DNA from: Pelomyxa schiedti
Lineage: Eukaryota > Protista > Evosea
Assembly: GCA_020536535.1 (NCBI GenBank)
Contig: JAHLWZ010000858.1
Span: 1-64,000, forward strand
Direction: 5' to 3'
DNA length: 64,000 nucleotides
A program made the translations under genes and the position numbers. The notes under the pieces are model-generated. The model had not been told where the DNA came from. It made no database searches and saw only the letters and a program-made list of their open reading frames with translations. Numbering within the stretch: position 1 is the stretch's first letter; every line of letters starts with the position of its first letter. Below, piece after piece: positions 35,451 through 64,000 of this stretch.

Positions 35451-35692
35451 CCTTTTTTTTTTTTCTTGTGATTTCGGCTTTGGGTTGAGAGCGGTCACTT
35501 GGACCTGACGCCCCCTCACTGCCCTCCGTCGATACTTCTCGACGGCATGGTGTAAATCGAAGAGTATCACAGTGCAATTGGGGTTTGGGGAACTGTGTGG
35601 GTCACAAGTTGTCACGGCAACCAACTTGGTGAAGGAGCCGTTCGGTACAACAAACGAAGTCCCCCCACAACAAGCGAAAGAAATTAGTTGAG

Positions 35693-37078
35693 ATGCCACA
35701 CTGGAAGGGGTCGCAGCTGTCACGACACCAACTCAGGCAACAAACAAACAAGAAGCCCACAAAGTCGTTCAACTCATCAAAAGGGAGCGCAGGCACATCA
35801 CGTCTCCCTGTGAAACACAAAAAGGAGCTCGAATTTGTAGAGAAGATGAAGCACGAAGAGGCCCTCAAAAATGTGGACCCACTCGAGAGCCTGCCTGTGG
35901 CACCAGTTCTGAGTTGCGTTTTGGTTGAAAGGGTGATTGCAAATGACGTGGATGCAACTGTGCAGGTCGGGAAGTACTTGGTTAAGCTGACGAAGCGCCC
36001 ATGGGACCTTCTCTTCCCCCTCTCCAGGTTTGGTGATGACCCGGATTTTCTCCACTGGGTTTGTATACACGAATACACCGAAAACATGTGTGTGGAGCTC
36101 CTGACTGAGGCCCTCAGGGCTGGGAATGGAATGGCTGCTGTGTGCCTCGCTGAATACAACTTCAAGAGAGGAGACAATGAAGCGGCCGTGAGGTTCCTCC
36201 ATGAACCTGCTGCTCTGGCGGTCGGCAAGTGCCACTTGTTGTTGGCGAGATGTTATTCAACTGGTGACAAAGGCCTGCCGAAGGACTTGTGCAAAGCTGT
36301 CGAGGAATTCCGCAAAGCAAATTGCTTTGATGCGTCGATGGAACTTGCCGGGCTGTGCAACCAGGTGTGCGACTGGCGTGGGGCAATTGAAGCTTATCAC
36401 AGTGCAATTGGGTTCAAGGACTGTGATGCCACGGCGGTCCTGAAGGGAGTCAGAGGCATGTTACCTAAGGATCGCGATCCAGACAGCTGGCCGAGCTGGA
36501 TAAAAGAAAAGGTTTCCAAGGTACTCGAGTTATGTGTGGCACTTTCCCACCGAGTGACGAGTGCCAGCAGCATGCTGCAAGTCGTTTCAGTTCTGATGCT
36601 TTTTGGTGGGAAGAAGCGGAACTTCTCCAAGTCACTTGACCTCTGCCTGGCTGCTCAAAAGCTGCCCTGTCAGGCTCCGGTTACGGAACCATGGTTGAAG
36701 GGACTGCTGACATCCTGGGGTGATGACACAGCAACCAAGTGCACACTTGAAGTGTGCACACAAGTTCTGTCACGAGTTGTGAACGACCAGGAGAGAATCA
36801 CAACATTCCTGCTTGGGCACAACCCTCGATGTGGTGGTGGTTCATTTGTTTGGCGACTTCCTCAGTTTGTTGTTGGTGACATTGTGATTATGCTCTGGGT
36901 TCAGAACTTTGGCACCCTCAACATAGTACTTTCCCAACTGTCTGGTTCTTTCTGGGGTAGTCTTGACTACCAGTGCTCATACCACCAGTTTGGTGCAGGA
37001 AAGAGCGGTCTGATTAATTGGCTGCTGGGCAAGGTCTCCTTGCTAAAACCGCTCAAAATAAACACAAAAAAAACCTGA
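35693..37078 (+). CDS. Intronless Sel1/TPR-like repeat protein, tandem copy 1
   Basis: 461-aa ORF; LARCYSTGDKGLPKDLCKAVEEFRKA is Sel1-like; C-terminal HNPRCGxGSxVxRLP motif. Confidence 0.8.
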   Translation: MPHWKGSQLSRHQLRQQTNKKPTKSFNSSKGSAGTSRLPVKHKKELEFVEKMKHEEALKNVDPLESLPVAPVLSCVLVERVIANDVDATVQVGKYLVKLTKRPWDLLFPLSRFGDDPDFLHWVCIHEYTENMCVELLTEALRAGNGMAAVCLAEYNFKRGDNEAAVRFLHEPAALAVGKCHLLLARCYSTGDKGLPKDLCKAVEEFRKANCFDASMELAGLCNQVCDWRGAIEAYHSAIGFKDCDATAVLKGVRGMLPKDRDPDSWPSWIKEKVSKVLELCVALSHRVTSASSMLQVVSVLMLFGGKKRNFSKSLDLCLAAQKLPCQAPVTEPWLKGLLTSWGDDTATKCTLEVCTQVLSRVVNDQERITTFLLGHNPRCGGGSFVWRLPQFVVGDIVIMLWVQNFGTLNIVLSQLSGSFWGSLDYQCSYHQFGAGKSGLINWLLGKVSLLKPLKINTKKT

Positions 37079-37239
37079 AAATTGCAATTGAAAGTGCTTG
37101 TAATAAATATGCTCCTCTTCCTCTGTGCAAGTAACTTGTCGGCCTGACAAGTTGTGTGCAGTAAACCAAATTGGAATCCAGCAGAGTTTTCTTGAACCGA
37201 CTCGATTTTGAGAAAAAGAAAGCAGGAAAAAAAACCTGG

Positions 37240-38634
37240 ATGCCACACTGGAAAGGGTCGCAGTTGTCACGACACCAACTCAGGCAACAAACAAACAAGA
37301 AGCCCACAAAGTCATTCAACTCATCAAAAGCCGGCGCAGGCACATCACGACTCTCAGCAACGAAACGCAAGCCGGAGCTCGACATCCGAGAGAAGAGGCA
37401 CCAAAACCATCTCCAGCACAAAGAGGCAGTAAAAAATGTGGATCAACTCGAGAGCCTACCGGTGGCACCAGTTCTGGGTGGTGTTTTGGTTGAAATGGTG
37501 ATGGCAAATGACGTGGATGCAACCGCGCAGGTCGGGAAGTACTTGGTTAAGATTGCGGTGGCCGAACCTGATTGGCGTTACCTGATGCGCCTCTTTGTTT
37601 ACCTAGATCTTTTCTCTCACTTTCTGGATCCGCAGCTCTTTCGGGGCTCGTCCTCAGATTACAAAACGCACAGCCGAAACATGTGTGTGGAGCTCCTGAC
37701 CGAGGCCCTCAGGGCTGGGAATGGAATGGCTGCTGTGTGCCTCGCTGAATACAACTTCAAGAGAGGAGACAACGAAGCAGCCATGAGGTTCCTCCACGAA
37801 CCTGCTGCTCTGGCGGTCGGCAAGTGCCACTTGTTGTTGGCGAGATGTTATTCAACTGGTGACAAAGGCCTGCCGAAGGACTTGTGCAAAGCTGTCGAGG
37901 AATTCCGCAAAGCAAATTGCTTTGATGCGTCGATGGAACTTGCCGGGCTGTGCAACCAGGTGTGCGACTGGCGTGGGGCAATTGAAGCTTATCACAGTGC
38001 AATTGGGTTCAAGGACTGTGATGCCACGGCGGTCCTGAAGGGAGTCAGAGGCATGTTGCCAGAGGATAACAGGGCAGAGAAATGGAAAAGGTGGGAGGAA
38101 GAAAAAGTGCACATGCTCCTTGAACTGTTTGAGAAAATTTCCCAACGGACGACCAGTACCAGCAGCATGTTGCAAGTCATTTCAGTTCTGATGCTTTTTG
38201 GTGGGAAGAAGCGGAACTTCTCCAAGTCACTTGACCTCTGCCTGGCTGCCCAAAAGCTGCCCTGTCAGGCAACAGTCAAAGAACAACGGTTACAGGAACT
38301 ACTGGGATCCTGGGGTGCTGACACAGCAACCAAGTGCACACTTGAAGTGTGCACACAAGTTCTGTCACGAGTTGTGAACGATCAGGAGAGAATCACAAGT
38401 TTCCTGCTTGGGCACAACCCTCGGTGTGGTCGTGGTTCATTTGTTTGGCGACTTCCTCAGTTTGTTGTTGGTGACATTGTGATGATGCTCTGGGTCCAGA
38501 ACTTCCACACTGTGGACTTGTTGCTTTCTGAGCTAATTTTTAGGCAAAAACGGAGAGATGCAATGAGAATGTGGGATAGTTCATCATCCTGCGAGCTCAG
38601 TTGGAGTGTGCCCCACAGTACCTTCGTTATGTAA
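37240..38634 (+). CDS. Intronless Sel1/TPR-like repeat protein, tandem copy 2
   Basis: Direct-repeat paralogue of 35693-37078 with the same MPHWKGSQLSRHQLRQQ start. Confidence 0.8.
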   Translation: MPHWKGSQLSRHQLRQQTNKKPTKSFNSSKAGAGTSRLSATKRKPELDIREKRHQNHLQHKEAVKNVDQLESLPVAPVLGGVLVEMVMANDVDATAQVGKYLVKIAVAEPDWRYLMRLFVYLDLFSHFLDPQLFRGSSSDYKTHSRNMCVELLTEALRAGNGMAAVCLAEYNFKRGDNEAAMRFLHEPAALAVGKCHLLLARCYSTGDKGLPKDLCKAVEEFRKANCFDASMELAGLCNQVCDWRGAIEAYHSAIGFKDCDATAVLKGVRGMLPEDNRAEKWKRWEEEKVHMLLELFEKISQRTTSTSSMLQVISVLMLFGGKKRNFSKSLDLCLAAQKLPCQATVKEQRLQELLGSWGADTATKCTLEVCTQVLSRVVNDQERITSFLLGHNPRCGRGSFVWRLPQFVVGDIVMMLWVQNFHTVDLLLSELIFRQKRRDAMRMWDSSSSCELSWSVPHSTFVM

Positions 38635-48710: not shown

Positions 48711-51700
48711 TTAGCCGAGGAGACTATCGAGAAGCTCGGCGTCCCTGGGATGGAGCGGGGCGTGGTGGCGGTGGGACTGCAGCAGAGGGCGGATTATGGG
48801 ATTCACGCGATCGCCCCAGTGGGTGTGCATCCAGTTGAGAATCACGAGGCACAGGTTGATGGTTTGGCATGAGGATTTCGTAGTGAGAATGGGGAGTTGC
48901 TGCTGTTCCGGGAAAAGGTGCCCAAGCACAAAGTCAGCGAGCTGCGGAAGGTGTGACTCGAAGCTTTTTTCCCATTTGTTGTTCCTCCGGCTGATGATGG
49001 AACTAGAGCTAGAATGTTGCTGCTGTTGCTGTTGCTGTTGTTGTTGTTCGGGTCCCGAGAGGGCACCGTTGGGGTGCATGTACGACAGCCAAGTGTACAG
49101 AACCTGAAGCTGAAGTAGTTGCAGATGTGGATAATTGTGTGGCGTCGGGTTCATTAGCTGCCACACAACTCCCTCCAGGTAGGCGGAAATGTTCCCTGTT
49201 TGAGAAGTTGATAAGAATGTTACTCGGTTGGGGTTAGGCTTGAAGTAGTACATGTTTCATGCTTAGGAACAAGCCGGTAAAGAAGGAACAATGCAACGGG
49301 ATTCAGTAGTGGAGCTGAGAGTTCTCTCCCATGATGCTGGTCAAGGAATGATACGTAAAGCATAGTTCTGTACACAATTGTCAGAAAATACAAGTTATGT
49401 ATGGTGTCTACTTCATTTCTTCAATTCCACGGCGTCGAGTGTCGTCATCTACTCTATCAAAAAGGGTCTGTATAACATCCACTAAGATTGTCTTGGAGGA
49501 ATCCAGCCATTCTGATTCTGTTTCCCGCCAACCCCATTACATTCAGGTGTTATGTTGTAACTCAAACCATTCAAGTTGGTGCTCTCGAGATTTTTCTTGT
49601 AAGGAAGAGGTAATTCTGTCTTGATGACGGTCGCGGGGCCATTGCATTCATGTGCCAGAGCATAGTGAATAACTGGAACACACAATTTTTGTGCTACTTC
49701 GCTATTGGTTTCTGGGTGCAACATATAAGAAGAGTGATATTAACGGGAGAAACATACTCAGAGATGTTACAGTACACATCAGCTTGGCAGCAATAGATCT
49801 TAGATGAAGAGGATGATTCTCGTTGATGAGGCTTATGACATGGGATAGCCTGTCTGCCCAAAAAGGAGGCCACGGTGTCGGAGTGACACCCTGGAGAGTG
49901 GCGATGCTTAACAGCAACTTAAGGGCACTGTAGCACAGTTCAGTTTTACCAGGGTTGAGGAACGACCAGTAGAATTCAGCACATACCCTTAGGGATTTAA
50001 AAAAAAGAGACAATATTTAAGGGTGATACGGGTCAAAGATAATAGACTCCATATTTTTCGGTAATGATTTAACTGAGCTGTATCCCTGTGAACTAATTCT
50101 TTTTCTTTCTAATTCTGTGTAGCGCTTGATGCAGTTTGAAATTGAGTGGAGGGCTACATTGTAATGCTGAAAGGCATCAATATGAGGGTAAAAAAAGAGA
50201 GACATACATTCGCTGTGAAGAGACATGCATTCGCTCTGAAGAGAGACATGGTTTCAATACATTGAACAAGGCATTGAGTAATTTGGGGGTGCTGAGCTGT
50301 TACGTCAGTGGGGCAAAGTAAAGAGAAGAGGATAGGAGACAGTCCTAAAATTGAAGTGGGTTTTTTGGTTTTTTGTTTGAATAAATACCATCTACTCCTT
50401 CACATAATAGCACAGAGCATATATCTTTCCAAGGGGTGGTATCTGGTTGTAACCTGGCATGCCAACCCTTGGGAAGTCATTTTTGCACCAATGTGGAGTG
50501 GCTTACCGAAAAGATCCTTTCTATCATATCTTGAAATAAAATGGGTAACTTATAATAACATTTCAACATTGGAAGAAGAATTTCTGTTGGCATTGAGGTG
50601 CACATTCCCTCCCAAAGTTTGATTATTCTTTTAGACACGTTTGGTGCTGTTGTGCATAAGACTAAATAAAAAAATAAGGAAAAACTTACCACAATTGTCC
50701 ACTATCGCTGCAAGTTCAATAGCTTTATTGGAGCCCTGTTCTAATACAAGTTTCAGTGTACTATCCTTTGTGGGAGAAAAATTCTATGGGGACCAAATAG
50801 AAGAGTCGAGTGGGTACCTCAGCATTCCCAGATTGGAGAATTGGTTGCAGAAAATGTCTAGAAAACCAGGGTGGGATTTGTACTGGGAAGCGTTTAACCA
50901 CCTCTTCAATCTTATTTATTTTTTTTTGTACACTTGAGTTTGTATGCTCAATGACTTGTGTGTTATTAAAATTTGATGGGATACCCAAGCCTTATTTTCC
51001 AGCATCTCGAATACTATTGCTATAGGTACGTGTTTGGGGATTGGGTCTGTTGAAGGAAACAGCTTCTCAAGGAGTTCACAACACAGAGTGACTTTGAGGG
51101 AGTCAAATGGTGATTGCACAAGAAGCTGCGTGATAATTGTAGTAAGGTGTAGATCGTTTATCCTGCAAGTTGTTTTTGCGCAGTATCATACTGGGTTTTT
51201 TAATATACCATGCTTTATTTTTCAGGAGGAAGCATACACAGTGAGGAAACTCGCTCGAAGGTCTCCTGAACACCCACTTCAGATAGGGTTTCAGTATGGC
51301 ATTGTTGTTGCGCTGCAGGCACGCTTCTAGCCAATCAAGCACTGGCGCTGTGCATTAGTGAGCCTTTTTATTACCTTTTTTGTAATAAGACCTCTATTGA
51401 ACATGGGATTGTGAGAAGGTACAGCAAGACTCCCACTTGTGATGGCATTGTGGAGGCACAGAATAATGGTCATAAAAACACTTTGTTCGAGGGTGCCTTC
51501 ATTACGTTTTTAAGAAAAAACGTAAGAAATAAAATAAAAACCTTGATCTTCTATATCCCCTAAATCGGGGGAATCAAATAATGCTATTATACAGTGGAAA
51601 ATAGAGACATCACAAAAATCTGCTTTCCCATGGGGATTGGATATCAATTCAATGAGTGGAGTGATAACCCGGGTTGTGTATTCAGGATGAAACGTTATGA

Positions 51701-53019
51701 AGCCTGTAAGAACAGCATCAAGCAACCGGGGTTCCTTATATCTCTGAGGTACGTTAGTGCCAATGCTACCAAACAATTTCTATACTTGTGTATCATTGTA
51801 TTGCTCTTTCACGAGACATTCAAGTTGGTCACCAAATTGAGTATTTGATAATGCTTGTCCTTCCCAACGTTGTATGTGCTCAAGTGTGAGTACTTTTGTG
51901 GCATGTCCTAAACAACAATTAGTAAAAGGGGGTGGGAATTCTCCTTCCAGTACCGTTTGGAGGGCGCTGCATCAACAAATCAGATAAAAGTGGGTTTGGT
52001 AAAGAGGAACTTTGTTCGTGTTCCACATGGTGGACTTCTTGGCTGGTGTGGCGCACTTGTTGTGGGTAATGTTTCTGCTGTTGGGTTTGCTTTGCATGAT
52101 GCTTGAAACGCTGAGTTTGCACTTGAGTCTGTGACGAAGTTGGGGCTGGAATTAGCATCGAGGAGTTGGCGCTCACATCCGGGTAGCCAGATTGGCTATC
52201 CTGCATGCCAAATGAAATAGCGCCAGACTGCTGCAGCTGCGCCATTGCAGCCAACTCACACAACTGCTGCTGGTCCTGGTCCTGCAGAGCTACTATCTGA
52301 GGCATCTGCAGCCCGATCGACTGAAACATTGGCACGGAGGCAGGAGGCTGCTCCTGCCGCGGCTGCCGCGGCCTGCCCCGCTTCTTCTGCTTTTGTGCAA
52401 CTGCCATTGGCTGCATCACCTGAGGTATCATCTGCCCATGAGCGAGGTGCTGGTGGAGGCTCATTCCGCCGCCGACATCGCTCCCACTGTTTCCGAGATA
52501 GCCGAAGCCCTGAATTGCCCCATAATCGTTGTAATCCACGCCCGGCGGAGTGTCCGCATAAACGACGTCGCCCAGCCCGCCGTCGAAACCTGTCACGGAG
52601 CCCAGAACCATTTGTGGGAGGCGTTCCTGGTCCTGATCTTGGTCCAGGTCGATCTCTTGTTGCTGGTCGCGCAAATGGGGGCCGGGGCTGCGAAACTGGC
52701 GATTTGGCAATTGAACGGCCACAGTCCCGGCCCCGCTCATCGTTGGCGCCATTTGGTAGTACTGCAGTTGCAAGTTCTGCGGAATTGCCATGCGTTGTTG
52801 TTGTTGTTGCTGGTGCATGTGTATGGGAATTATGGGAGCTTGTGGGAGCTGGACCTGCCTCGAGGAGGAAGAAGAAGAAGTAGTTGACGATGAAACCTTG
52901 GAGCGCTTCCTTTTGGGGCCAGGGACCGACGCAGGGCCAATGACGGCCGAATTATTCGCAGGTGTCGCCGCCGTAGCTCGTGTGTGGCTTCGGGGTCGCA
53001 TCTGGCCAATTTTTTTCAA
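48711..53019 (-). CDS. Large hypothetical nuclear protein: Q-rich N-terminus with NLS and AT-hook, helical (HEAT-like) body
   Basis: First exon has PKRKRSK and KKRGRPR; following minus-strand exons are Leu-rich amphipathic helices. Family not recognised; single-gene continuity inferred. Confidence 0.6.
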
Positions 53020-53079
53020 AATTCAAGTTTAATTAATTTGTAAATTTGGAGCCATCAGATTTTTTTTTGTCTGCAAGGA

Positions 53080-56000
53080 TCAAGACTTGGTTTCTCTTAG
53101 ATTCGTTACGAACTGCAAACTGTCTTCTACCTTGCGCATCGTGGTTTCCGCTTTTTGTGTGGTCTCTGACAGCCATTTCAGGTCCAATTCGTTGTGCTTT
53201 GCATTGGTGATAGACAGAAAAGAGTACAAGGCTTTAGCACCATCAACTAGCTCCAGTTGGTCATCTATAATTTGGGCCTGCTCGATAGACCCTTCGTTCT
53301 TTTCCTGTTGTGTGTTTCTTCAGGGAAAAAGGATGGAGAGTAGAACCTCTAGCTTCCGGACTTCGGAATTCAGCAGATTGGATATGTTGAAAAGAGAACT
53401 CTGTAGCTTCTGTGCGTCAGCCAGGGCCTTGGAATAGTGCCCAGCATCAGCGACTTTGTCTGCCGGAATGCAACCATGTACTGCGGATACGCGTGAACAC
53501 AGAATTTCCTTGTACTGGTGCTCAAGTTTCTCTTCTTCAGACATATTGGCGTCATCAAGTGCTTGCTTTGTGCGGCGGTACCAATTCAAGATTTTCTCTT
53601 TAATCCATGGCTTGATTGTGACTTCAGGTGCAGGTACTGTAATCCTCGAGGCTTGTCCTTCCTGGGAAGAGTGCTCTTCCTCCTTTTTCGCTTCATGAGG
53701 CTCCTCTGTCCCGCTTCTTACCGAGATAAGCTCGACTGGTTTAGCCAGTGGCTCTGCTGTTGTCCGGGGCTGCGGACCACTTGGAATTGACTTCCTGCTG
53801 AACTGGGAAGGGTAGTAGTCAGGCTGGAGGATGGATGAAACTGATTTGTGTGGCAGCCATTCAACTAATTTAATGTAGGGAAGAAAGTATTGTGGCCTTA
53901 GCATTGGTAAACCTGTCCGCACAATTTGTATCAATGGATCATAGAGTGAACATGCAAATTCAAAAAAGATTTGGAAGAGCTCGGAGCACTGTGACATATT
54001 CAATACTCCCTGGAGGAAGTAGTAGGTACAGGGGTATTGGCACCATCGGTGAGTAAAGGAAGGAGTGCGAAGTAACTGGATGGCTTGCATGAATAAATTA
54101 CTATCATTGGGTAAATTAAAAACAGCAACAAGGAAAGCAATGAGAACATCAAGCCAGAACTGGTATGACTGTTCTTGTCTTATCCACTTGTCTGCATCTG
54201 CACTACGCTCAATGAGTGTTCTAAAGAGGTTCATCAAGTTGGAGATAAGGTTCCCCTGCTCCGGCATTGAGATGCAGAAGAGGGGAGTAGGTCCTTGAAA
54301 TTTCATCACTCTTGTGTACCACTTGTGGGGCACAAGAAACCAGGATGTGGCGCCGACAGTACACCCAATGACCATCTCTGCAAGCGACAACCACTCACGG
54401 CAATCACAAACAGGGCTGAGGAGTGTGGATCCAAGATATTGTATCATGCCGTAAACACCATAGAACCAATAATTGAAGACATCGTAGGTATTGGCAAGAG
54501 CAAACCAGAGTAACGCATCCCCTTCTGGCACTACTGCAAGATTCCACTTACTCAGAATATCTCCAGCCTGGAGTTCAAGGGCAAGTCGGAACCCTTTGAT
54601 TTGGTGTGTCGGGAGCGGGGAGCACCATAGTTCCATGGCATGAAAAATAAGCTCTTGGCGATGAGGAGGTAATATGGATGGTCTCCTTGGTGAGGCTAAT
54701 AAGAAATCAACAATATCAGAGAGAATTTTATTGCGCCAAGCTATAAGACTTTGCCTCGCATTAGTCGCATACTGAGTGCAGAAGGCGTCATTATCGGTCA
54801 CAGAGAAAATGGTCTGATAAATATCCCAGATCACACAAAGAGCAGTGAGTGCCTCATGAAGATTTGCCAGTGCTATAGTATTTCCAGAATCGAAGAGGCA
54901 CTTCGAAAAATCACTTAATAAATTCAGCCCTCTGTGCAAAGCAACACAAGCAGCTTGGGCAAACACAAGGTGATTTGGGAGAAAAGGTGACTGAGTCTGC
55001 AGGAAAAGTGGCAGCCAAGAGAAATCTGTGAGCTTCAAAGACCCGTCAGGGCATTGGTGCACAAGGTAGTAGTCTTGTATATTCTTCCTGAGCTTGGACT
55101 CCTTTTCACCATAGACTGGAACAAGACGGTGCCACTGATGAGCTGATTGTATAAACTCAGCCATATGTGAACCCCATTTTTTAAGGATCTGTATTCTTTC
55201 GTCAAATGAAATTCCTTGGCAGCACTGTTTAAGTGCAGTAGAGATAGAAAGGTCAGATAGAAGTTTTTGCAGCAGAAAATTCTCCGGAAACTCTTCATTT
55301 ACTTGCTTTTCAAAATCCAAGGTGATTGGTAACATGTCTAGGTGGGCAAGTCGTACTTTTAGTTCACAAGCAAATGCTCTATTCGAGGTTTTTAAAGTCA
55401 AGTTATATGCTTCATGAAGCAAGGTTTTCTTGCATTCCTGGTCACTGTACGAAGCGTAGAAAAGACATCTGGACCCTCTTTCAACCAACATCTGCTTCTC
55501 AGAGGAGCTAACTTTTTCAGCGGCTCGAATGAAGAGTTTACCAGCCTCTTCATACTTAAATTCCCGTGCGAGGATCTCTGCAGCTTGAACATATTTTCCT
55601 TGACGCAGGTACTCTTCAATGATCAGGTCAAAAAAGTTGTAGCGTTTTAGAAATTGGAGTCTTTCTGTAGCTGAGAGTAACATAAGTGCCATTGTCATGT
55701 CTTCCATGGACCGTGTTGTTTTAAATACCAATGCCGAATTTCTTACAAATCTCTGGTATTCTTCCCGTTGCACTAAAGCAGGGGTGCTATTCAACACATC
55801 AAAGGCTTTCTTCCTCAAGATATCAATGTGCTCTTTCCTCACATGTTGTACAGAAGCCTTTGAACAAAAGAAAATAGCGATGTCCATAGCTTCTTCCATG
55901 CTTTTACTTTTCTGCATGTCAAAAGCTAAATCAGGCCTACTTGCAGAGATAAGACAATTCACTGCACTTTGTGTGTCATTGATTGCTTGGTAAACTTCTG

Positions 56001-59000
56001 CAGCTTCAAGGTATTCCTCAGCAAATTCCAGGCACTTTGCTTGTCCTTGTTGATCACCATCTAACTGGCAACTCTGTGAAGCCAAGAGAAACTTTTCTTT
56101 GCGCACTGTTGCATTTCCACTTGACTTGCCCTCCTTTACCAGCTTCATAGAAATAGCTTTCTCTTCGCCACAAACGTCCCCAGCAAAATGAAAGCAGGAA
56201 GCAGCTTCAGCGTACATCCCCTTCATCATCATTTGGAACCCAGTGCACTTCCATACCTCTGGTGAAGTGTGGGACTCACGAGTTAGTTCATACATTTGGT
56301 CTGGAGTCAGGGTATCCTGCAAGGAAATGACCCCTTTTTGTGCCAAGTAATCTGTAAATTTACGTTGCTCTCCAAGAAAATCGTCCACTATGACTAGTAG
56401 CTTCCGTGTTCTTGTAACTGCAGTGTACAAATGCTTAAGTTCTGAACAGAGGATGAGGAGTTGATCCTCCAGAATTGTGGGTTTTTCTTCCTTTTTCAGA
56501 AGGTTTACAAAGGCTCCCCACTGGTGTAGTGCAATTGAGTCGTGCCAAAAATTCACAAGTAGCACGTGATTGAACTCTAACCCTTTTGCCTCCTGTATTG
56601 TCATCACTAGGCCTGATTCCATTTGCTCCAATATTTTCTTTTTGGCTTCTTGGTTACGCACCAGCATAACTTGTCCAGCACCAAAGGATATGTGAGGAAC
56701 TTTACGGTCAAACCGAAATAGCTGGGACAAAGTTCCAGAGGCTATTCCACCTTGCAAAAATATTGGTTTAGGGTTTCCAGAGCCCGGTGCACTTTCAGGG
56801 GGCAGCTTATCCATGGAATGTGGAAAAAATTGTATGATTGTCTCAGTGATTACATTGGCCAAATTGCATATTCCAGCATGAGTCCGGTAATTTCGGGTCA
56901 GAAACAACAACTGTGGTACCTCCCGGGGGTTCTTGCCAACTAGAATCTCATAGAATATATCTTTGGCCTAGGAGGTACCACTAAGCACACGAGGAAGGTT
57001 TTAAAGACATACAGTTTCAAAACGGAAATTAACGCCTTGATTTATAATCTGGGCTGTGTCTCCAACCAAAGCATATCCACTGGGCTGTGGACAAATGAAT
57101 TTAAGCAGTGCGAGTTGGGCCATGTTACAGTCTTGGACTTCGTCAACATAGACAAAGTCCAAAGGTAGGAGGTCAGTTGGATTCAGTTGCAGTTGATGAT
57201 AAACGTGTAAGGTGAAGTCAGCCATATCCCAACCATTTTGCAGTCGCTTTTCCTTTTCATATTTTAGGAATAATTCATAAACTTTTCTCGGGTCTTTGAT
57301 TATGGCAGTTCTTCTTGTGCAAATTTCACAGTATTGCTCTAGTGTCAGACACTTTTTTGTGGGTAAAATAGCTAGAACATTTCCCTTGATAGTACTTTGA
57401 ATTTCGATCCACACAATAGCCTGAAAAATGGAGGTTAGAACGACCGCCATGAAACTTAATAAGTACCGAATCAAGGCCTGCAGTAAGATTCTGGTCAAGG
57501 TGTACCCAGTATTCCTGTGAAAATCGAGTGAAGTCTACTTCTTGTAGTTCAAATTTTCTTGTGCTAGCAGTTTTGGCTGCCATGTACACTTGAGGGGGAC
57601 ATGGTGTCAGATCAGTAGATTCTGTTTTAAGCAGCGCAACAACGGACTGGTCTGCAACGTAGTTCGGCATAGTTTCGGCTTGTTTCTTGTTTGGCTGTAG
57701 AAGCTCCAAAAGTGGGGCTCCAATTTCATCGTGCCATAAACGTGTATCTTTGTCAAGAGAGGAACGGAAGGGCCTCTGCAAAGCAGCATCTATCATGGTA
57801 AGAAGTTTTCTGTGAGTGATGAAGAGCGGGAAATGGGAATCTCTTAATTCTTGGATAGATTCAGGAAGTGTGGAAAGAGATATTCCTTTCTCAAGCTCTT
57901 CAAATGAGATGTCCTGGATGACGGCATATTGGTGCATAGTTTTCGTTGTGCCATGTTTAGATAAGAGAGATTGAAGCTCGTTTTGAGCAAGAGCACAGAG
58001 CGAGGGTGAAACTGAAACAAAAATTTGTCTGGGGTGCATTGCTGGTGATTGTAGTTCACGCAGGAGCATTCTGTACAGAAGAACTGTTGTTTTACCAGTA
58101 CCTGAGCGACCACACACCACAATTGGACCATCGCGTGAAACGAGTTCGCGCTCCTTTACACTGAGGGACATCGGCAAGGTATGAAAAGTACCCTCCAGAA
58201 CGGAGGCAATAAACTGTGGATCCACTTTGAAGTACTTACTGCAGAAAACGTCTCTTAGGGTGGAGTCCATATCTTTTAGTGGTGCATCAAGCCGTAAAGG
58301 ATGCTTTCGATACTCATTTTGCTCCAAGGTAATTTGGTTTGCATCCCAGCACTGAGGGAACATATTCAATTTCTGAGATCCTTCAGAAGGCACTTGGTAA
58401 GGAGGAGTTTTCCGTAGTTTCAGACGTAGGCCTGATCTTCTTCCGTCATCTAATATCGTCGCTTGGAGACTGACAATAGCCTTTTCCACAGAATCTTGGC
58501 TTACAAGTCCAAAAACAGATATTATTTGCCACGCACCGTCCGACTCACTGACCTCAATATCAATACACCATATGAGTACCTTCCCACATGTATGTGATAG
58601 GTGAATAATGGAGTTCAGCTGCAGAGGTCGGATACTGCTGGGAAGGGTCACTGGGTGTTTTGGCCACCTCCCCTGACATAGTTGCACAAGATGTAAGCCA
58701 ACTATTGTTCTTTGTACTGCATCAAGTTTTCTTAAGTCTTGATAGAACTGATCACGAGCATGCATTCTAATAGGATGTAAGCAAGAGGGGGAATGAGGTT
58801 ACAGACTTACAGCCAAGGGCCTCCAAAGTTCTTTAGGTCAGCTGGAGACAGATACCCTAAAGCAACACGAAGTTGCATAGGAATAGGAAAACTTCTGACA
58901 TCGATATAGGCATCATGGTTTCTTGCAAACACAATATATTCATTCCAAATAGGGTGCTGCCGGAGAGAGCAGGCATTTCCTACAACCCATAAAGCAAGCC

Positions 59001-62000
59001 TTGCCCGAGTTAGTACAACATTCAGTCTTCTCCAGTCTTTCAGGAAGCCCATATAATCACAGACATTGCTCCGAACAGTACTGACGATAACAATATCTTT
59101 CTCCCGTCCTTTATAGCCATCAAATGTGGTGACTTCGATGTGGTGGCCCACTCCATGGAGCAACTGTTTCAAGGCTCCACACTGTTCAGAGTAAGGGGTG
59201 ATTACTGCCAGGCTCACTTGTTCCTTTGTATGCTGCTTGAAAAATAGTTTTGCGAGGTACTTGATGAAGTGAGACTCGTAACTATTTGAGAATGATTGAC
59301 TGGTCGAATTGTAACTTTCGGCTCCATCCACATGGAAGAATTTTAGTGGCCCAAACATCGTGTCACTGTGCCAGGGTCTACTTCTCTCTGACTGACAGTT
59401 AGGAGCATCCTCAATTTTGTTTTGATAGAATTGTCTGCGCTTTGATTAATAAATAAAAAAATAAAGTGTTACGCACTCAGAGACAAAGGCACTGATTAAA
59501 GGATGCATTCTGTACTGGATACTGAGTGAATGGTAATGATGACCTGCGTCCACCATTCTTTCTATCATAGACCGACCATAATTCACTCCTCTGCATAACG
59601 GAAGGGGATTTTGTTTAGGAAAAAATGTAACATGTTTGCTTACTTCGCCAATTCACTCCCGATAGGCGTTGGTAACTGGTTCCAATCACCCAGAAGAATT
59701 AATCGCCTGGCACCAAAACGTAGTATGGGGAGCATGATTTCCGGTTCCAAACTTTGATCACACTCATCAATAATTATAGTGCCAAAAGTACGAGAGGCGA
59801 GCTTGTCCAAGGAATCCGTACTATTCAGGGGGCTCAGAATGAGTTGTGAACTCAATAGCTCCTCTCTGATTTCAAGCATTATATTTTTTGATTGAATGTC
59901 TTGCAACTGGAGTGAACATTCACGTAGAACCTCGGAAGCAGTGTTTTTGTCACCTGTCAAGCTTCCCCTAACAAACTGCAATTTTTGCATCTGTGTTAAC
60001 CAATTGTAAAGTGTCCCCTTGAAGTGCCTCTTGAATTTGATGTAAGTTTTTTCACATCCCTTTAAAATTGAAGAGGCACTAATAAGGTGTGGATGCACAG
60101 AATCTATGGGAGCTTTGATCTTCAACAAAAAAAGGAGATCTGCACATGCCAAGCACAGGTTTTTGAAGAAACCACATAAAACTCTGATGACGTTCCCAAG
60201 TAAAACAGTTCCTACAACACTGTCCAGGTCTTTCCCTTCTTCATAGTCAACCAGTACCATAGAAATATCATCACCAATAATAGGACTACAGTTGTTCAGT
60301 ATGTTAACTGCGATGTCCTCTAAAGCAATGCAAGATGGAGAGCACAGAACAACTCTTTCATTCCGTGAAAGGAGCACTGAAAGTAATCCAAAAATGAGTG
60401 TTGTCTTGCCAGCTCCTGGGGAACCTGAGAGCTGTTAGACCACTCAAATTTGCCAAGAATACCATGAATAATGGCAACAGGGTCACTACTTGTGGCATAG
60501 TTGATTGCCTTTATTTGAGACAGACTGAATTTGGAGATCAAATAGCCGGAAAGTGCACTGTCTAACATGCGTTCGTTTGGGTTACTACCAACAACATTCT
60601 TGTACAATGAGGGTCGGAGAATGTGGGCAAGAATTGGGTCTTCAAGTGCAGTAAAGTCATGGGAATACATAGCCAACAGTACTTCAAATATCCCCCTAAA
60701 ACGTGAAAGACTTGCTACTCGTGCTACCTGCCACATCTGAGGAAATGTCCCACAATCTTGGGCTGGTGAGCTTCAGGGTAAAAAGAAAAGATTCACACCA
60801 AGGAAAGCACGCATGTCGGGTGCCGCAAACATAATTTCGTAGTGTTCTATTTGATCTCTCTTCTCCATATTGACTGGGATGCGCTCAACGATGCCACACA
60901 ATCTTAGACTTGGGCGATTCGAATTGCCAATGAGAACAAAGTCAGATAGATGTAAATCACAATTCCCCTCCAAAGTCAAAATATGAAAAGGGCTAGATCC
61001 TTGCACACCCATCACTTTTACACTACACCATTTTTGGGGATGCTTTACAGCATTGCTCTGGAGAGAACCAAGTTAAAATAAGGAGAACAAGGATTGTGAC
61101 ACACAAGGACAGTTCGATATTCTTCAGCAAAAGGCCAAAACCACTGAGAGGAATATATTTCAACACTGGGGAACTCAAGGGCTAGAGGCACAATTTTGTT
61201 GAGGAACTGTTTGCTGTTTTGTTACATTAGGGTATCACCAGAATTGAGTTATGTACGTGTCCTCTAGATTCAGAGACAGCATCCAATGCAATGAGGAGCA
61301 TTGAGGGGGAACATAACAGGCAAAGTTCGAGTGACAAACACGTATAGAAGCAGAATCCTTCAGCTATTGAGATTACGTCACTGTTCTGCAGAACACAGGT
61401 ACCAAATGGGTAGGTTGAAGAAGTGAGTCGATAAATCTCTCAGTAACTGGCACTACAATGGCTGGAGCGTGGGGGATATCTGCTAGCTTGTAGCAATACC
61501 TGTAAGTGTGCTCTTTTGAGAGAAGCTAATACAGTTCGGGAGACACACAGTCGGCGGTTGTCTAAGCTGTACCACTGACCCTTGAATTCAGTTACCCGAA
61601 TAGGGGGGACTTTGTAGATATAAGATGGGTTACATCTAGATTTAAAAAGAGATAAATAGGTGGAGGCTGTAAAACGAGTAGACGACCTGAGAGTACAAAT
61701 CAAGGACTCCAAAGACGACTTATCATTGAAAGTGCTGAAGATGGATGAACGTGTAAAAGCTATCCTAGACACAACTGCGCGGAGTGTGGGAACCGCAGTG
61801 GGCCACGTAGTCACAGGGAGCCTATTTTTTCACACAGTTATTTCTGCTTGTATTTCGAGGGGGAAAAAAGGGGGAAAAAAAAAAAAAAAGCAAACTCAGG
61901 ACAAGGAGGGTCTTCAGCAGGTCTAGCAGTGACATATTCCGGGCGAGATGGAGCGTCGAGAGGAATGGCTGCAGCTGGCTGCCGTGGCGGGAGCTCCATG

Positions 62001-62504
62001 GCGGGATTTCCATCCGCTGGCAGTAATCGAGGTGCACGCCCAGCTCCCGCTCGTCGTTGCCCACCGCCGCCGCCGCCGTCGCCGCCGCCGCAGCCCCTCG
62101 TACTGTGCGGGGCCGAGGGGGGCTTGACCGTGAGCACATAGTATTCGCCAGGCGGAGGCGGCCGCGGCGCCCCAGCACCGGCTCCCCCCTCCTTGCGCAA
62201 AGTGCTCCCTCGGTGGTGTGTGGCCGCCCTGGTGGCAGTGGCAGTTAGTTACAGTTGTAGTAGAGGTACTGCGGCCCGGCATGCCGGGAGACGCAGTAGG
62301 GCGCACGGCGCTTTGTGGCTGCGCAGCGGGGAGGACATGAGTTTGAGGTGCGGTAGTAGTAGCAGGGGCTGATGGCAAGGGCGGCGCGGTTCCGCGCGGT
62401 GGCGCTGTTGGTGCAGGCGCAGAATGGGGGGTGGGATTGAGGCCAGAAGAAACTAAGTTGGGAGGGTCGGGTTCGCACGTGAGCTTGCGATTGAGAGAAC
62501 CCAT
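53080..62504 (-). CDS. Giant dual-helicase protein: ParB-like domain + UPF1/SEN1-type SF1B helicase + UvrD/TRANK1-type helicase + TPR-like repeats
   Basis: PPIRV...WYSLDNRRL (~61410-61790); GSPGAGKT, IIIDECDQ, LLGDWNQLP, QYRMHP, RRLNVVLTRAR (58810-60500); GRSGTGKTT, YVDEVQD, GDTAQ, LTRNYRTH, AKGLEF, LYTAVTR (56370-58160); helical repeats after. 5' exon structure uncertain. Confidence 0.85.
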
Positions 62505-63250
62505 GGTGTGGAGTGCAGTAATTTGTTTCAGTGTGGATGAGTCATGTCTCGGTTTTGCCAGATGAACCCGAAAAACAAATGATCACCTCATTTTTCTCTG
62601 AAACACCGTTTCTTTGGATCATTGGGATGCGGGAACAGCCAGGATCTCGGCCCCTGTTGTTGTGGGCAATGCCAATTATTGTCATTGCATGTGGGATGGT
62701 GTGCTTGGTGCTTGCTGTCGGTACATTCTTTCTTTTTTTCGTTTCTTGTGCATATGCACGTCCCACAAGTGGGGTTTGTGATTTTTTTTTTTTTTTTTTT
62801 GATTTATTCAAAGTTGGTTAGTGAAGCACAAGGGCTACCTTCGTGACTTTTTGTCGACTGAAGGAGTCATTGTTTCTATTCTGATGGCTGAATTTATGGT
62901 GGCCGTTCTGGCCCTCGTTGTGTTCCTACATTACCGTTCGAGGTATTTCACGAATCCTATCTTTTTTATTTCCTACTTCCCATTATCCTAAACTACACCG
63001 AATATCCACTAACATAACATATTCCGCCACACAAAGCACCAGAAGCAAGCAGCCACAGCCTCCTATTTCTGCCAAGCCTGTCAAGAAGACCAAGCCCTCC
63101 CACGCTGAATGAAACCGCAACAAATTACTTATACAAGTACTACACGGCAATTTGTGGATCCCAAATTTTTTGACCCACCTCTAAACAAACAGGGTTTGTT
63201 CCCATACCACAAAAGCAAATATTTACAGAATCACAAAACTTTTTTTTTTT

Positions 63251-64000
63251 TTACACGCTGGAGTAAGACGAAACGAGAGGTGTGTATTCACATATTGCTT
63301 GTATTGTAAATCTGTTAGTGAGGCATAAATAGGAATCACAAGTGCCTGTTGTAATGGCGTTGAACCAGGAATCTCTGTCAGGCAATGTAGAAAAAATCAG
63401 TGTTGCTTGCCACAGTGGCGTTATGGATTGATCTCTGTGGAGTGCATAAATTACAAGATTCAAATGGGTGAAGTACTTGGAATAGTAGCCTTCAAGCCAT
63501 ATGCAGTGCTTGTCCAGAGGTATGCCGTTACTTTCTTTTGTGGTATCAGCCACTGTAAGTACGGCAAGACAGTTCAGAGGGGTCAATGACTTCATAACAA
63601 GTTTGGAACTCCAAACAGATCCTTGTGCACGCAATAGAACGTCATTGAAGAGAAGGTACTGCACCTCCTAAAAAAAAAACCCATTACGAAGATTGGACGA
63701 AAAGAAACGCATACCTGGGTATTTCCAGCAATCATTCCATAAAGAATTCCACAAGGTACATGCTCAGTAAGGGTGCCGTACCTAGCATTCGCTTATTCCC
63801 CGTCTCGTGTAAAGTTAACCTCACTTGGTCAATCGTCGGGACGGAATAACTAAGTCTATTGGGGCTCCATTCTGTGCGGCGGGAAGGAAACTTAGAGAAT
63901 GAGACGAGGAATATATGAACACAACTTACCTCATCTGTTACATCAGCATGCAGCTTCCATAATGTCAACTGATTATCCTAATTACCAGCAAAATAAGACA
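63251..64000 (-). CDS. 3' end of a DH-PH RhoGEF-like gene (PH domain); 5' part outside the window
   Basis: Spliced DLVIPSRRLTKYGTL (DH-PH linker), YLLFNDVLL, and terminal PH helix DRDSWFNAI. Confidence 0.7.

Follow-up and report, generated by a model that had tools for sequence, protein, structure and literature searches.

Gene model and transcripts at the locus

The window analysed here, positions 1 to 64,000 of contig JAHLWZ010000858.1 from the archamoeba Pelomyxa schiedti, contains on its minus strand a transcribed nuclear gene whose predicted protein carries, in order, a Tox-ParBL1 domain, a SEN1-type superfamily 1B (SF1B) helicase, a RelE-fold domain, a TRANK1-type UvrD helicase and helical repeats, and this domain architecture holds. 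The open frame comprises 2752 amino acids (aa) in 15 exons once all 14 GT-AG introns of 38-74 nucleotides (nt) are removed; for the genome as a whole, excerpts of the published report (PMC8887013) give 7.43 introns per gene and 98.41% of introns as GT-AG. The features of the gene are the following.

53080..61999, minus strand: whole gene model, with likely ATG at 61999 and one stop, TGA 53082-53080; based on frame, RNA joints and NCBI model P0001
61822..61895, minus strand: first intron, 74 nt; its removal brings the MELPPRQ exon into frame with ParBL1; exact length arithmetic, 3 RNA contigs
61337..61784, minus strand: Tox-ParBL1 domain (ParB/Srx fold), aa 48-148; SLDNRRL motif at 61568-61499, the family's conserved Gln being Arg here
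61358..61402, minus strand: 45-nt GT-AG intron with in-frame TAA (61375-61373) and TAG, before the last predicted ParBL1 strand; retained in both of the 2 spanning RNA contigs
60539..61303, minus strand: SEN1/DUF6469-like helicase N-terminal region, aa 160-370, by alignment with plant dual helicases
58906..60538, minus strand: SF1B (SEN1/UPF1-type) helicase core, aa 371-870; Walker A GSPGAGKT, Walker B DECDQ, motif V Gln replaced by Lys
59557..60353, minus strand: 797-nt deletion carried by a second allele, with 6-nt microhomology; the loss of 744 coding nt (248 codons) keeps the frame and takes away Walker B and motifs Ia and III of SF1B
58442..58824, minus strand: RelE/ParE-fold domain between the helicases, aa 898-1010, lacking the family's conserved basic residue
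56281..58174, minus strand: TRANK1-type UvrD (superfamily 1A) helicase, aa 1100-1700, all checked motifs intact
55501..56268, minus strand: tetratricopeptide repeat (TPR)-like helical repeats, recognised only through homology, by aligning relatives of plant and TRANK1 type
53083..55500, minus strand: C-terminal region, no family match, the fastest-diverging part; presumably helical

The start at ATG 61999 is likely and fits better than the start at 62504 taken by an earlier note on this DNA, because no listed RNA piece lies upstream of 62013 and the second allele has a 4-nt deletion at 62243. Acceptor 60757 was set from RNA and acceptor 61358 from a paralogue and the NCBI model (61364 would keep the frame too), and parts of the gene that have no RNA cover were not counted as evidence. 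The UvrD part is 100% identical to the NCBI Pelomyxa schiedti protein P0001. The full 4014-aa extent of that model, which fuses the gene to the one downstream, was rejected because the paralogues end at the TGA and the RNA contigs stop at 53094. Reassignment of stop codons is ruled out by a 1215-codon frame free of TAA and TAG.

The RNA evidence consists of assembled contigs from three single-cell RNA runs of one sample, which show majority paths only, rare forms being dropped; a further run, X4, is of unrecorded type and behaves as DNA. Ten introns are seen as joints in the RNA contigs (20 crossings), and overall 11 introns other than that at 61402-61358 are spliced in 23 of 23 crossings, while intron 57012-56968 has no RNA cover and intron 53346-53305 is consistent with 49 leftover bases of one contig. 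The SF1B exon is bridged to the exon that opens the RelE-fold/UvrD part by one RNA contig (joint 58766/58811, 215 nt on the short side), and a second runs from 61930 through the ParBL1 exons to the SF1B Walker A; no single RNA contig covers the whole gene. The single in-frame, GT-AG-spliced gene proposed earlier is thus borne out by the open frame and by 11 RNA-supported introns, but not at 61402-61358, which is unspliced in 2 of 2 contigs.

Both contigs that span 61402-61358 read 61257-61497 unbroken, yet they splice introns on both sides, and one carries the window allele and the other the second allele. We infer that the segment is a true intron because it has GT-AG ends and a typical length, because the ParBL1 fold continues after it, and because paralogue P0002 is continuous (QPTHL-DS) across the matching point; its splice signals are like those of its spliced neighbours. 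The next in-frame ATG after TAA 61375 lies at 61282, where P0002 has Ile. One open reading frame (ORF) is favoured since the intron falls within the ParBL1 fold, ahead of the final strand, the P0002 model is continuous and the internal Met is not shared with P0002. The earlier layout of a single polypeptide therefore survives in part: one RNA does span ParBL1 and SF1B, but it keeps the stop-containing intron, and for this reason we infer, rather than see, that ParBL1 is joined to the helicases in one protein.

Variation between alleles is concentrated at the front of the gene, since X4 is near-uniform over 51500-59562 (a single contig with one difference). The joint of the 59557-60353 deletion was found in X4 (depth 29.7 versus 41) and in RNA run X1, and there is an in-frame insertion of 9 nt at 61808, beside the first intron.

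Toxin folds and helicase motors

The ParBL1 exon has no relevant Pfam match, and a profile search of Protein Data Bank (PDB) sequences with it gave nothing relevant. A ParBL1 profile built from two sequences matched 896 of 1.84 billion representative proteins at E ≤ 0.001, and the best 150 of these 896 share the pattern FxQxSI...F.DG...P.I.V...[ST]LDNRRL; the spacing between its motifs is 39 here and mostly 36-42 in relatives where the pattern matched. Among the 60 matches scanned, the closest relatives include C-terminal toxin tips of RHS, HINT (PT-HINT), haemagglutinin and DUF637 carriers. The Tox-ParBL1 signature, [ST] ... [NT][RT][RT] with a conserved Arg, is present as FTRSS ... SLDNRRL, with DNH in place of DNRR in P0003. 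The AlphaFold2 model, made from the spliced form in the NCBI protein, has a mean predicted local distance difference test (pLDDT) score of 94.2, and Foldseek matches it to ParB CTPases (E 8e-5) and sulfiredoxin (2e-4), which upholds the ParB-like N-terminal module that had been read from the sequence. The N-terminal domain is a genuine polymorphic-toxin-family domain with a predicted ParB/Srx fold.

The comparative survey of such toxins (PMC3482391) places Tox-ParBL1 in polymorphic toxins and in several eukaryote groups and proposes a nuclease activity, and excerpts of PMC5512222 describe other ParB domains as DNases or nucleotidases. The Pelomyxa domain resembles the bacterial Tox-ParBL1 of the first survey in its N-terminal Ser, DNRR motif and ParB/Srx fold; unlike the C-terminal tips of RHS and HINT carriers, it is N-terminal, is fused to helicases and, in this copy, has lost the conserved Gln. 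Pfam finds no secretion carrier domain, and with ParBL1 at the N-terminus of a helicase protein the layout is not that of a polymorphic toxin system. The Pelomyxa ParBL1 pattern had no relatives in metagenome contigs (0 of 317 stretches). At a separate locus (L007, 286-7403), a 2009-aa RHS-type protein with a ParBL1 tip is followed by an ORF, which we take from its motif to resemble RNA 2'-phosphotransferase.

Both helicases named in the earlier note are confirmed by Pfam matches above the cut-offs: AAA_11 (72 bits) and AAA_12 (189 bits) for the SEN1/UPF1-type core, and UvrD-helicase with UvrD_C_2 for the second motor, whose nearest relatives are the TRANK1 family. In the SF1B core, Walker A, Walker B and motifs III, IV and VI are recognisable, and motif Ia has Cys for Asn. 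The WxLxLxxxD...EEYR segment aligns with the N-termini of plant helicases, as had been claimed; DUF6469 has no Pfam match in the Pelomyxa protein and a strong one in plant protein P0014, and the SEN1-type label is a putative one drawn from N-terminal similarity to plant DUF6469 proteins. In P0002, residues 725-740, the SF1B Walker A reads GRIEKYTT where this gene has an intron, which is either an annotation mis-splice or a dead motor. The TPR-like repeats fare less well, being supported by alignment with plant and TRANK1-type relatives but not by Pfam, which finds neither TPR nor ankyrin in this protein and a sub-threshold TPR in paralogue P0003 only.

Between the two motors lies a segment of 113 aa, 80% identical to P0002, whose model (pLDDT 81) resembles RelE in the VIA comparison, with a Z of 9.3 and a root-mean-square deviation of 2.6 over 79 aa. 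Each of the top 22 VIA rows is either a toxin-antitoxin entry of RelE/YoeB/YafQ/ParE/HigB type, a few of these labels being presumed, or Cami1, which bears RelE. There is no Pfam match to RelE, and a profile search of PDB sequences with the segment gave nothing relevant. An iterated profile recovered the segment, in two cases doubtfully, from 51 of 58 TRANK1-type relatives spanning animals, plants, algae and fungi, and in TRANK1-type proteins generally (P0004-P0058) it sits just upstream of the UvrD Walker A. At positions 73 and 93, which presumably correspond to catalytic residues of RelE, the Pelomyxa domain is without the basic residues of the family, and animal copies keep basic residues. 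Judged from these alignments, the domain has probably lost its catalytic residues, and docking is likelier than cleavage because a basic residue kept in 26 of 30 aligned rows is missing. Whole-word searches, which left most subscription papers outside their coverage, found no paper on TRANK1 with RelE or on TRANK1 with UvrD; RelE fused to SF-I helicases in bacteria has reportedly been described.

Paralogues and relatives in plants, animals and bacteria

The gene belongs to a family of three copies, since two Pelomyxa paralogues, P0002 and P0003, have the same domain order. ParBL1 is 29-61% identical among the three, and the UvrD part is 77-78% identical to P0002. A word-limited search for long TRANK1-type relatives, which took in proteins of 2126-5000 aa, returned 58, of which 19 have both helicases (3 from Pelomyxa and 16 from plants) and only the 3 from Pelomyxa have ParBL1. 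It follows that this is not a conserved single-copy housekeeping gene, and that SF1B plus TRANK1-type fusions do occur in plants, as had been stated. The plant SEN1-type (DUF6469) plus UvrD/TRANK1-type dual helicases share with the Pelomyxa protein the SF1B motor, RelE-fold linker, UvrD motor and helical repeats in the same order, with cores 29-39% identical, but ParBL1 occurs in 0 of the 16. TRANK1 (TPR and ankyrin repeat protein 1) of animals and algae shares the RelE-fold domain, UvrD and TPR-like C-terminal part; it differs in having a TPR/ankyrin N-terminus in place of ParBL1-SF1B and, in animals, in RelE-fold basic residues that Pelomyxa lacks.

A separate ParBL1-SF1B pairing is found in bacteria. 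Four of the 60 scanned ParBL1 matches also carry SF1B, and of 60 matches to a profile of the ParBL1-SF1B junction, 46 were near-full. In the 48 proteins of this kind that were examined, ParBL1 is always present, Walker A occurs in 46, motif VI in 41 and the CCCH finger in 38; bacterial origin is established only for six loci and two named matches among them. The fusion stands in 6 of 19 genome loci, belonging to Chlamydiales (two copies), Coxiellaceae, two proteobacterial metagenome-assembled genomes (MAGs) and one uncultured bacterium, always as intronless genes amid ordinary bacterial genes (L001-L006, e.g. L002:5968-9102, L003:5806-8973 and L006:3771-6962), each with a eukaryote-type helicase. 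It is rare, occurring in 2 of 400 genomes of the Chlamydiales MAG's phylum and 1 of 63 of the Coxiellaceae MAG's order, and had no relatives in viral contigs (0 of 10). These proteins (from Chlamydiales, Parachlamydiaceae and Coxiellaceae MAGs and metagenome ORFs) resemble the Pelomyxa gene in that ParBL1 leads directly into a SEN1-like N-terminal region and SF1B core, and differ in their length of ~1000 aa, lack of introns, CCCH-finger end and lack of RelE fold and UvrD.

Where did this shared front module arise? In a tree that took in no SEN1 or UPF1 sequences and skipped 6 plant and 6 partial rows, the bacterial SF1B cores form their own clade, which groups with Pelomyxa and plant helicases against five ordinary prokaryotic SF1B proteins (Shimodaira-Hasegawa-like approximate likelihood ratio test, SH-aLRT, 98); neither placement tested for the order among Pelomyxa, plant and bacterial cores is favoured by the approximately unbiased test (p-AU 0.45 and 0.53). 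For ParBL1 itself the trees disagree. FastTree on 210 rows places Pelomyxa with stand-alone ParBL1s, and the Pelomyxa domain scored higher on the stand-alone-ParBL1 profile, although the Pelomyxa query had been used to select that set; with IQ-TREE on 36 selected rows, one clade with the bacterial fusions is not rejected (p-AU 0.55). Going by these trees, the fusion may have a single origin, which is compatible with the IQ-TREE result but not with the FastTree grouping. The word senataxin was not found among the matches listed in the literature searched. The bacterial ParBL1-SF1B-CCCH family may be a eukaryote-derived and possibly host-targeted effector.

Each part of the Pelomyxa protein is of a known kind, the SF1B plus UvrD core being already known from plants. 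Neither the five-part layout nor the bacterial ParBL1-SF1B-CCCH family was found in our searches, and the supplement of PMC3482391 on eukaryotic ParBL1 architectures may already show such fusions.

Function of the protein, and neighbouring genes

ZNFX1, MOV10 and HELZ2 are antiviral SF1B helicases. For the Pelomyxa gene we tentatively favour, at slightly less than an even chance, a nucleic-acid surveillance (conflict) protein of a three-copy family, with ParBL1 as its predicted effector and the full-length form kept off by the retained intron. A conflict role is favoured because of the two toxin folds, the lineage-restricted paralogues, the allelic variation at the effector end, the patchy sharing with host-dependent bacteria and a vertebrate relative that is interferon-stimulated, TRANK1 being listed as such in excerpts of PMC6880163 and PMC10269786. 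The RelE/ParE fold between the helicases, overlooked in the earlier note, strengthens this reading insofar as the structural model is correct. We hypothesize that the conserved TRANK1-type core (RelE fold, UvrD motor and TPR-like repeats) would bind RNA or ribosomes, its RelE fold acting in docking and not as a nuclease. The SF1B motor of SEN1 type would translocate along RNA and deliver ParBL1, whose activity would be either hydrolysis of a nucleotide or nicking of nucleic acid. The full protein would require splicing of intron 61402-61358. The helicase-nuclease anti-phage systems Mokosh and Gabija are alike by analogy only, as a helicase motor plus a nuclease-type effector. Protist innate immunity is poorly known, and the gene offers a concrete candidate with a putative on/off step. 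For vertebrate TRANK1, an interferon-stimulated gene that is little understood, the RelE fold of the family hints at a mechanism.

Several observations count against this conflict role. All three paralogues carry ParBL1, so effectors are not swapped among them. Both toxin folds in this copy have lost conserved residues: ParBL1 has Arg where 73 of 78 relatives keep Gln, as P0002 does, and position 93 of the RelE fold, in the last strand, is Ser. Moreover, none of the RelE matches from Foldseek reached E ≤ 0.001 (4.7e-3 for the best, probability 1.0). The SF1B motif V has Lys for Gln, and the second allele lacks the SF1B Walker B. Intron 61402-61358 is spliced in 0 of 2 spanning contigs of the one sample, and the RNA seen encodes a 150-aa ParBL1-only product ending at TAA 61375. 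The PADLOC MkoA and GajB profiles match generic helicase cores only, with no partner genes.

An alternative hypothesis, which we consider doubtful, is a housekeeping RNA-processing or quality-control helicase like the plant SEN1 plus TRANK1 fusion, in which ParBL1 would be a nucleotide-binding regulator, the RelE fold would act as an adaptor to ribosomes or RNA, and defence would play no part. The SF1B plus UvrD core in 16 plant proteins, the RelE fold kept across the TRANK1-type proteins, transcription in unchallenged cells (as far as run records show) and the inclusion of non-toxic CTPases and sulfiredoxins among ParB/Srx domains all fit this idea. However, 55 of the 58 relatives lack ParBL1, the family has three diverged copies, a Walker B-less allele is tolerated, and the front module is patchily common to Pelomyxa and host-dependent bacteria.

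A somewhat improbable explanation is that the front end is splitting or degenerating through a weakened splice site, such that the locus makes the 150-aa ParBL1-only peptide or decay-bound RNA, and perhaps a helicase from ATG 61282, while a paralogue carries the full function. Retention of the intron in contigs of both alleles, the existence of a deletion allele, substitutions in motifs whose consensus P0002 retains and two template-switch-tagged cDNA ends at 61930 and 61937, downstream of ATG 61999, would be expected from such decay. Yet apart from this the reading frame is unbroken through 2752 codons, neither the deletion nor the 9-nt insertion shifts it, the splice signals resemble those of spliced neighbours, and the P0002 model itself has a broken Walker A, perhaps an annotation slip. 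Faster decay of this copy is unsupported by relative-rate tests, which show no clear acceleration versus P0002 (SF1B 48 versus 33, p=0.12; 1 of 21 tests p=0.049).

The conflict reading also has a bolder form, which we regard as unlikely: a protist immune protein bearing two bacterial-toxin folds and two helicase motors would be armed when one detained intron is spliced out, intracellular bacteria would have captured its ParBL1-SF1B half to mimic the host, and the TRANK1 family as a whole, the vertebrate protein included, would be helicases with a RelE fold that survey ribosomes or RNA. Least likely of all, and very improbable, is that an intracellular bacterium supplied the ParBL1-SF1B half, a host-manipulating effector, which was then joined to a native gene of TRANK1 type: the occurrence of ParBL1 and SF1B in this pairing and order in MAGs of Chlamydiales and Coxiellaceae and the unrejected single origin of the ParBL1s would fit, but the grouping of the bacterial clade with Pelomyxa and plant helicases points to a eukaryote-type helicase entering bacteria, plants have SF1B plus UvrD without ParBL1, and Pelomyxa is not nested inside the bacterial clade.

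Around the gene, the downstream neighbour at 48714-53022, which the NCBI model fuses to it, has a Gln-rich N-terminus followed by a long stretch with no Pfam match. At 62416, DNA and RNA contigs diverge from the window sequence with an identical loose end, suggesting an insertion or another haplotype upstream. A plus-strand GT-AG joint in RNA at 62940-63035, between this gene and a spliced minus-strand gene upstream (63434-63930), marks a divergent or antisense transcript. Farther away, at 35633-38631, two long plus-strand ORFs have near-duplicated N-terminal segments (MPHWKGSQLSRHQLRQQ).

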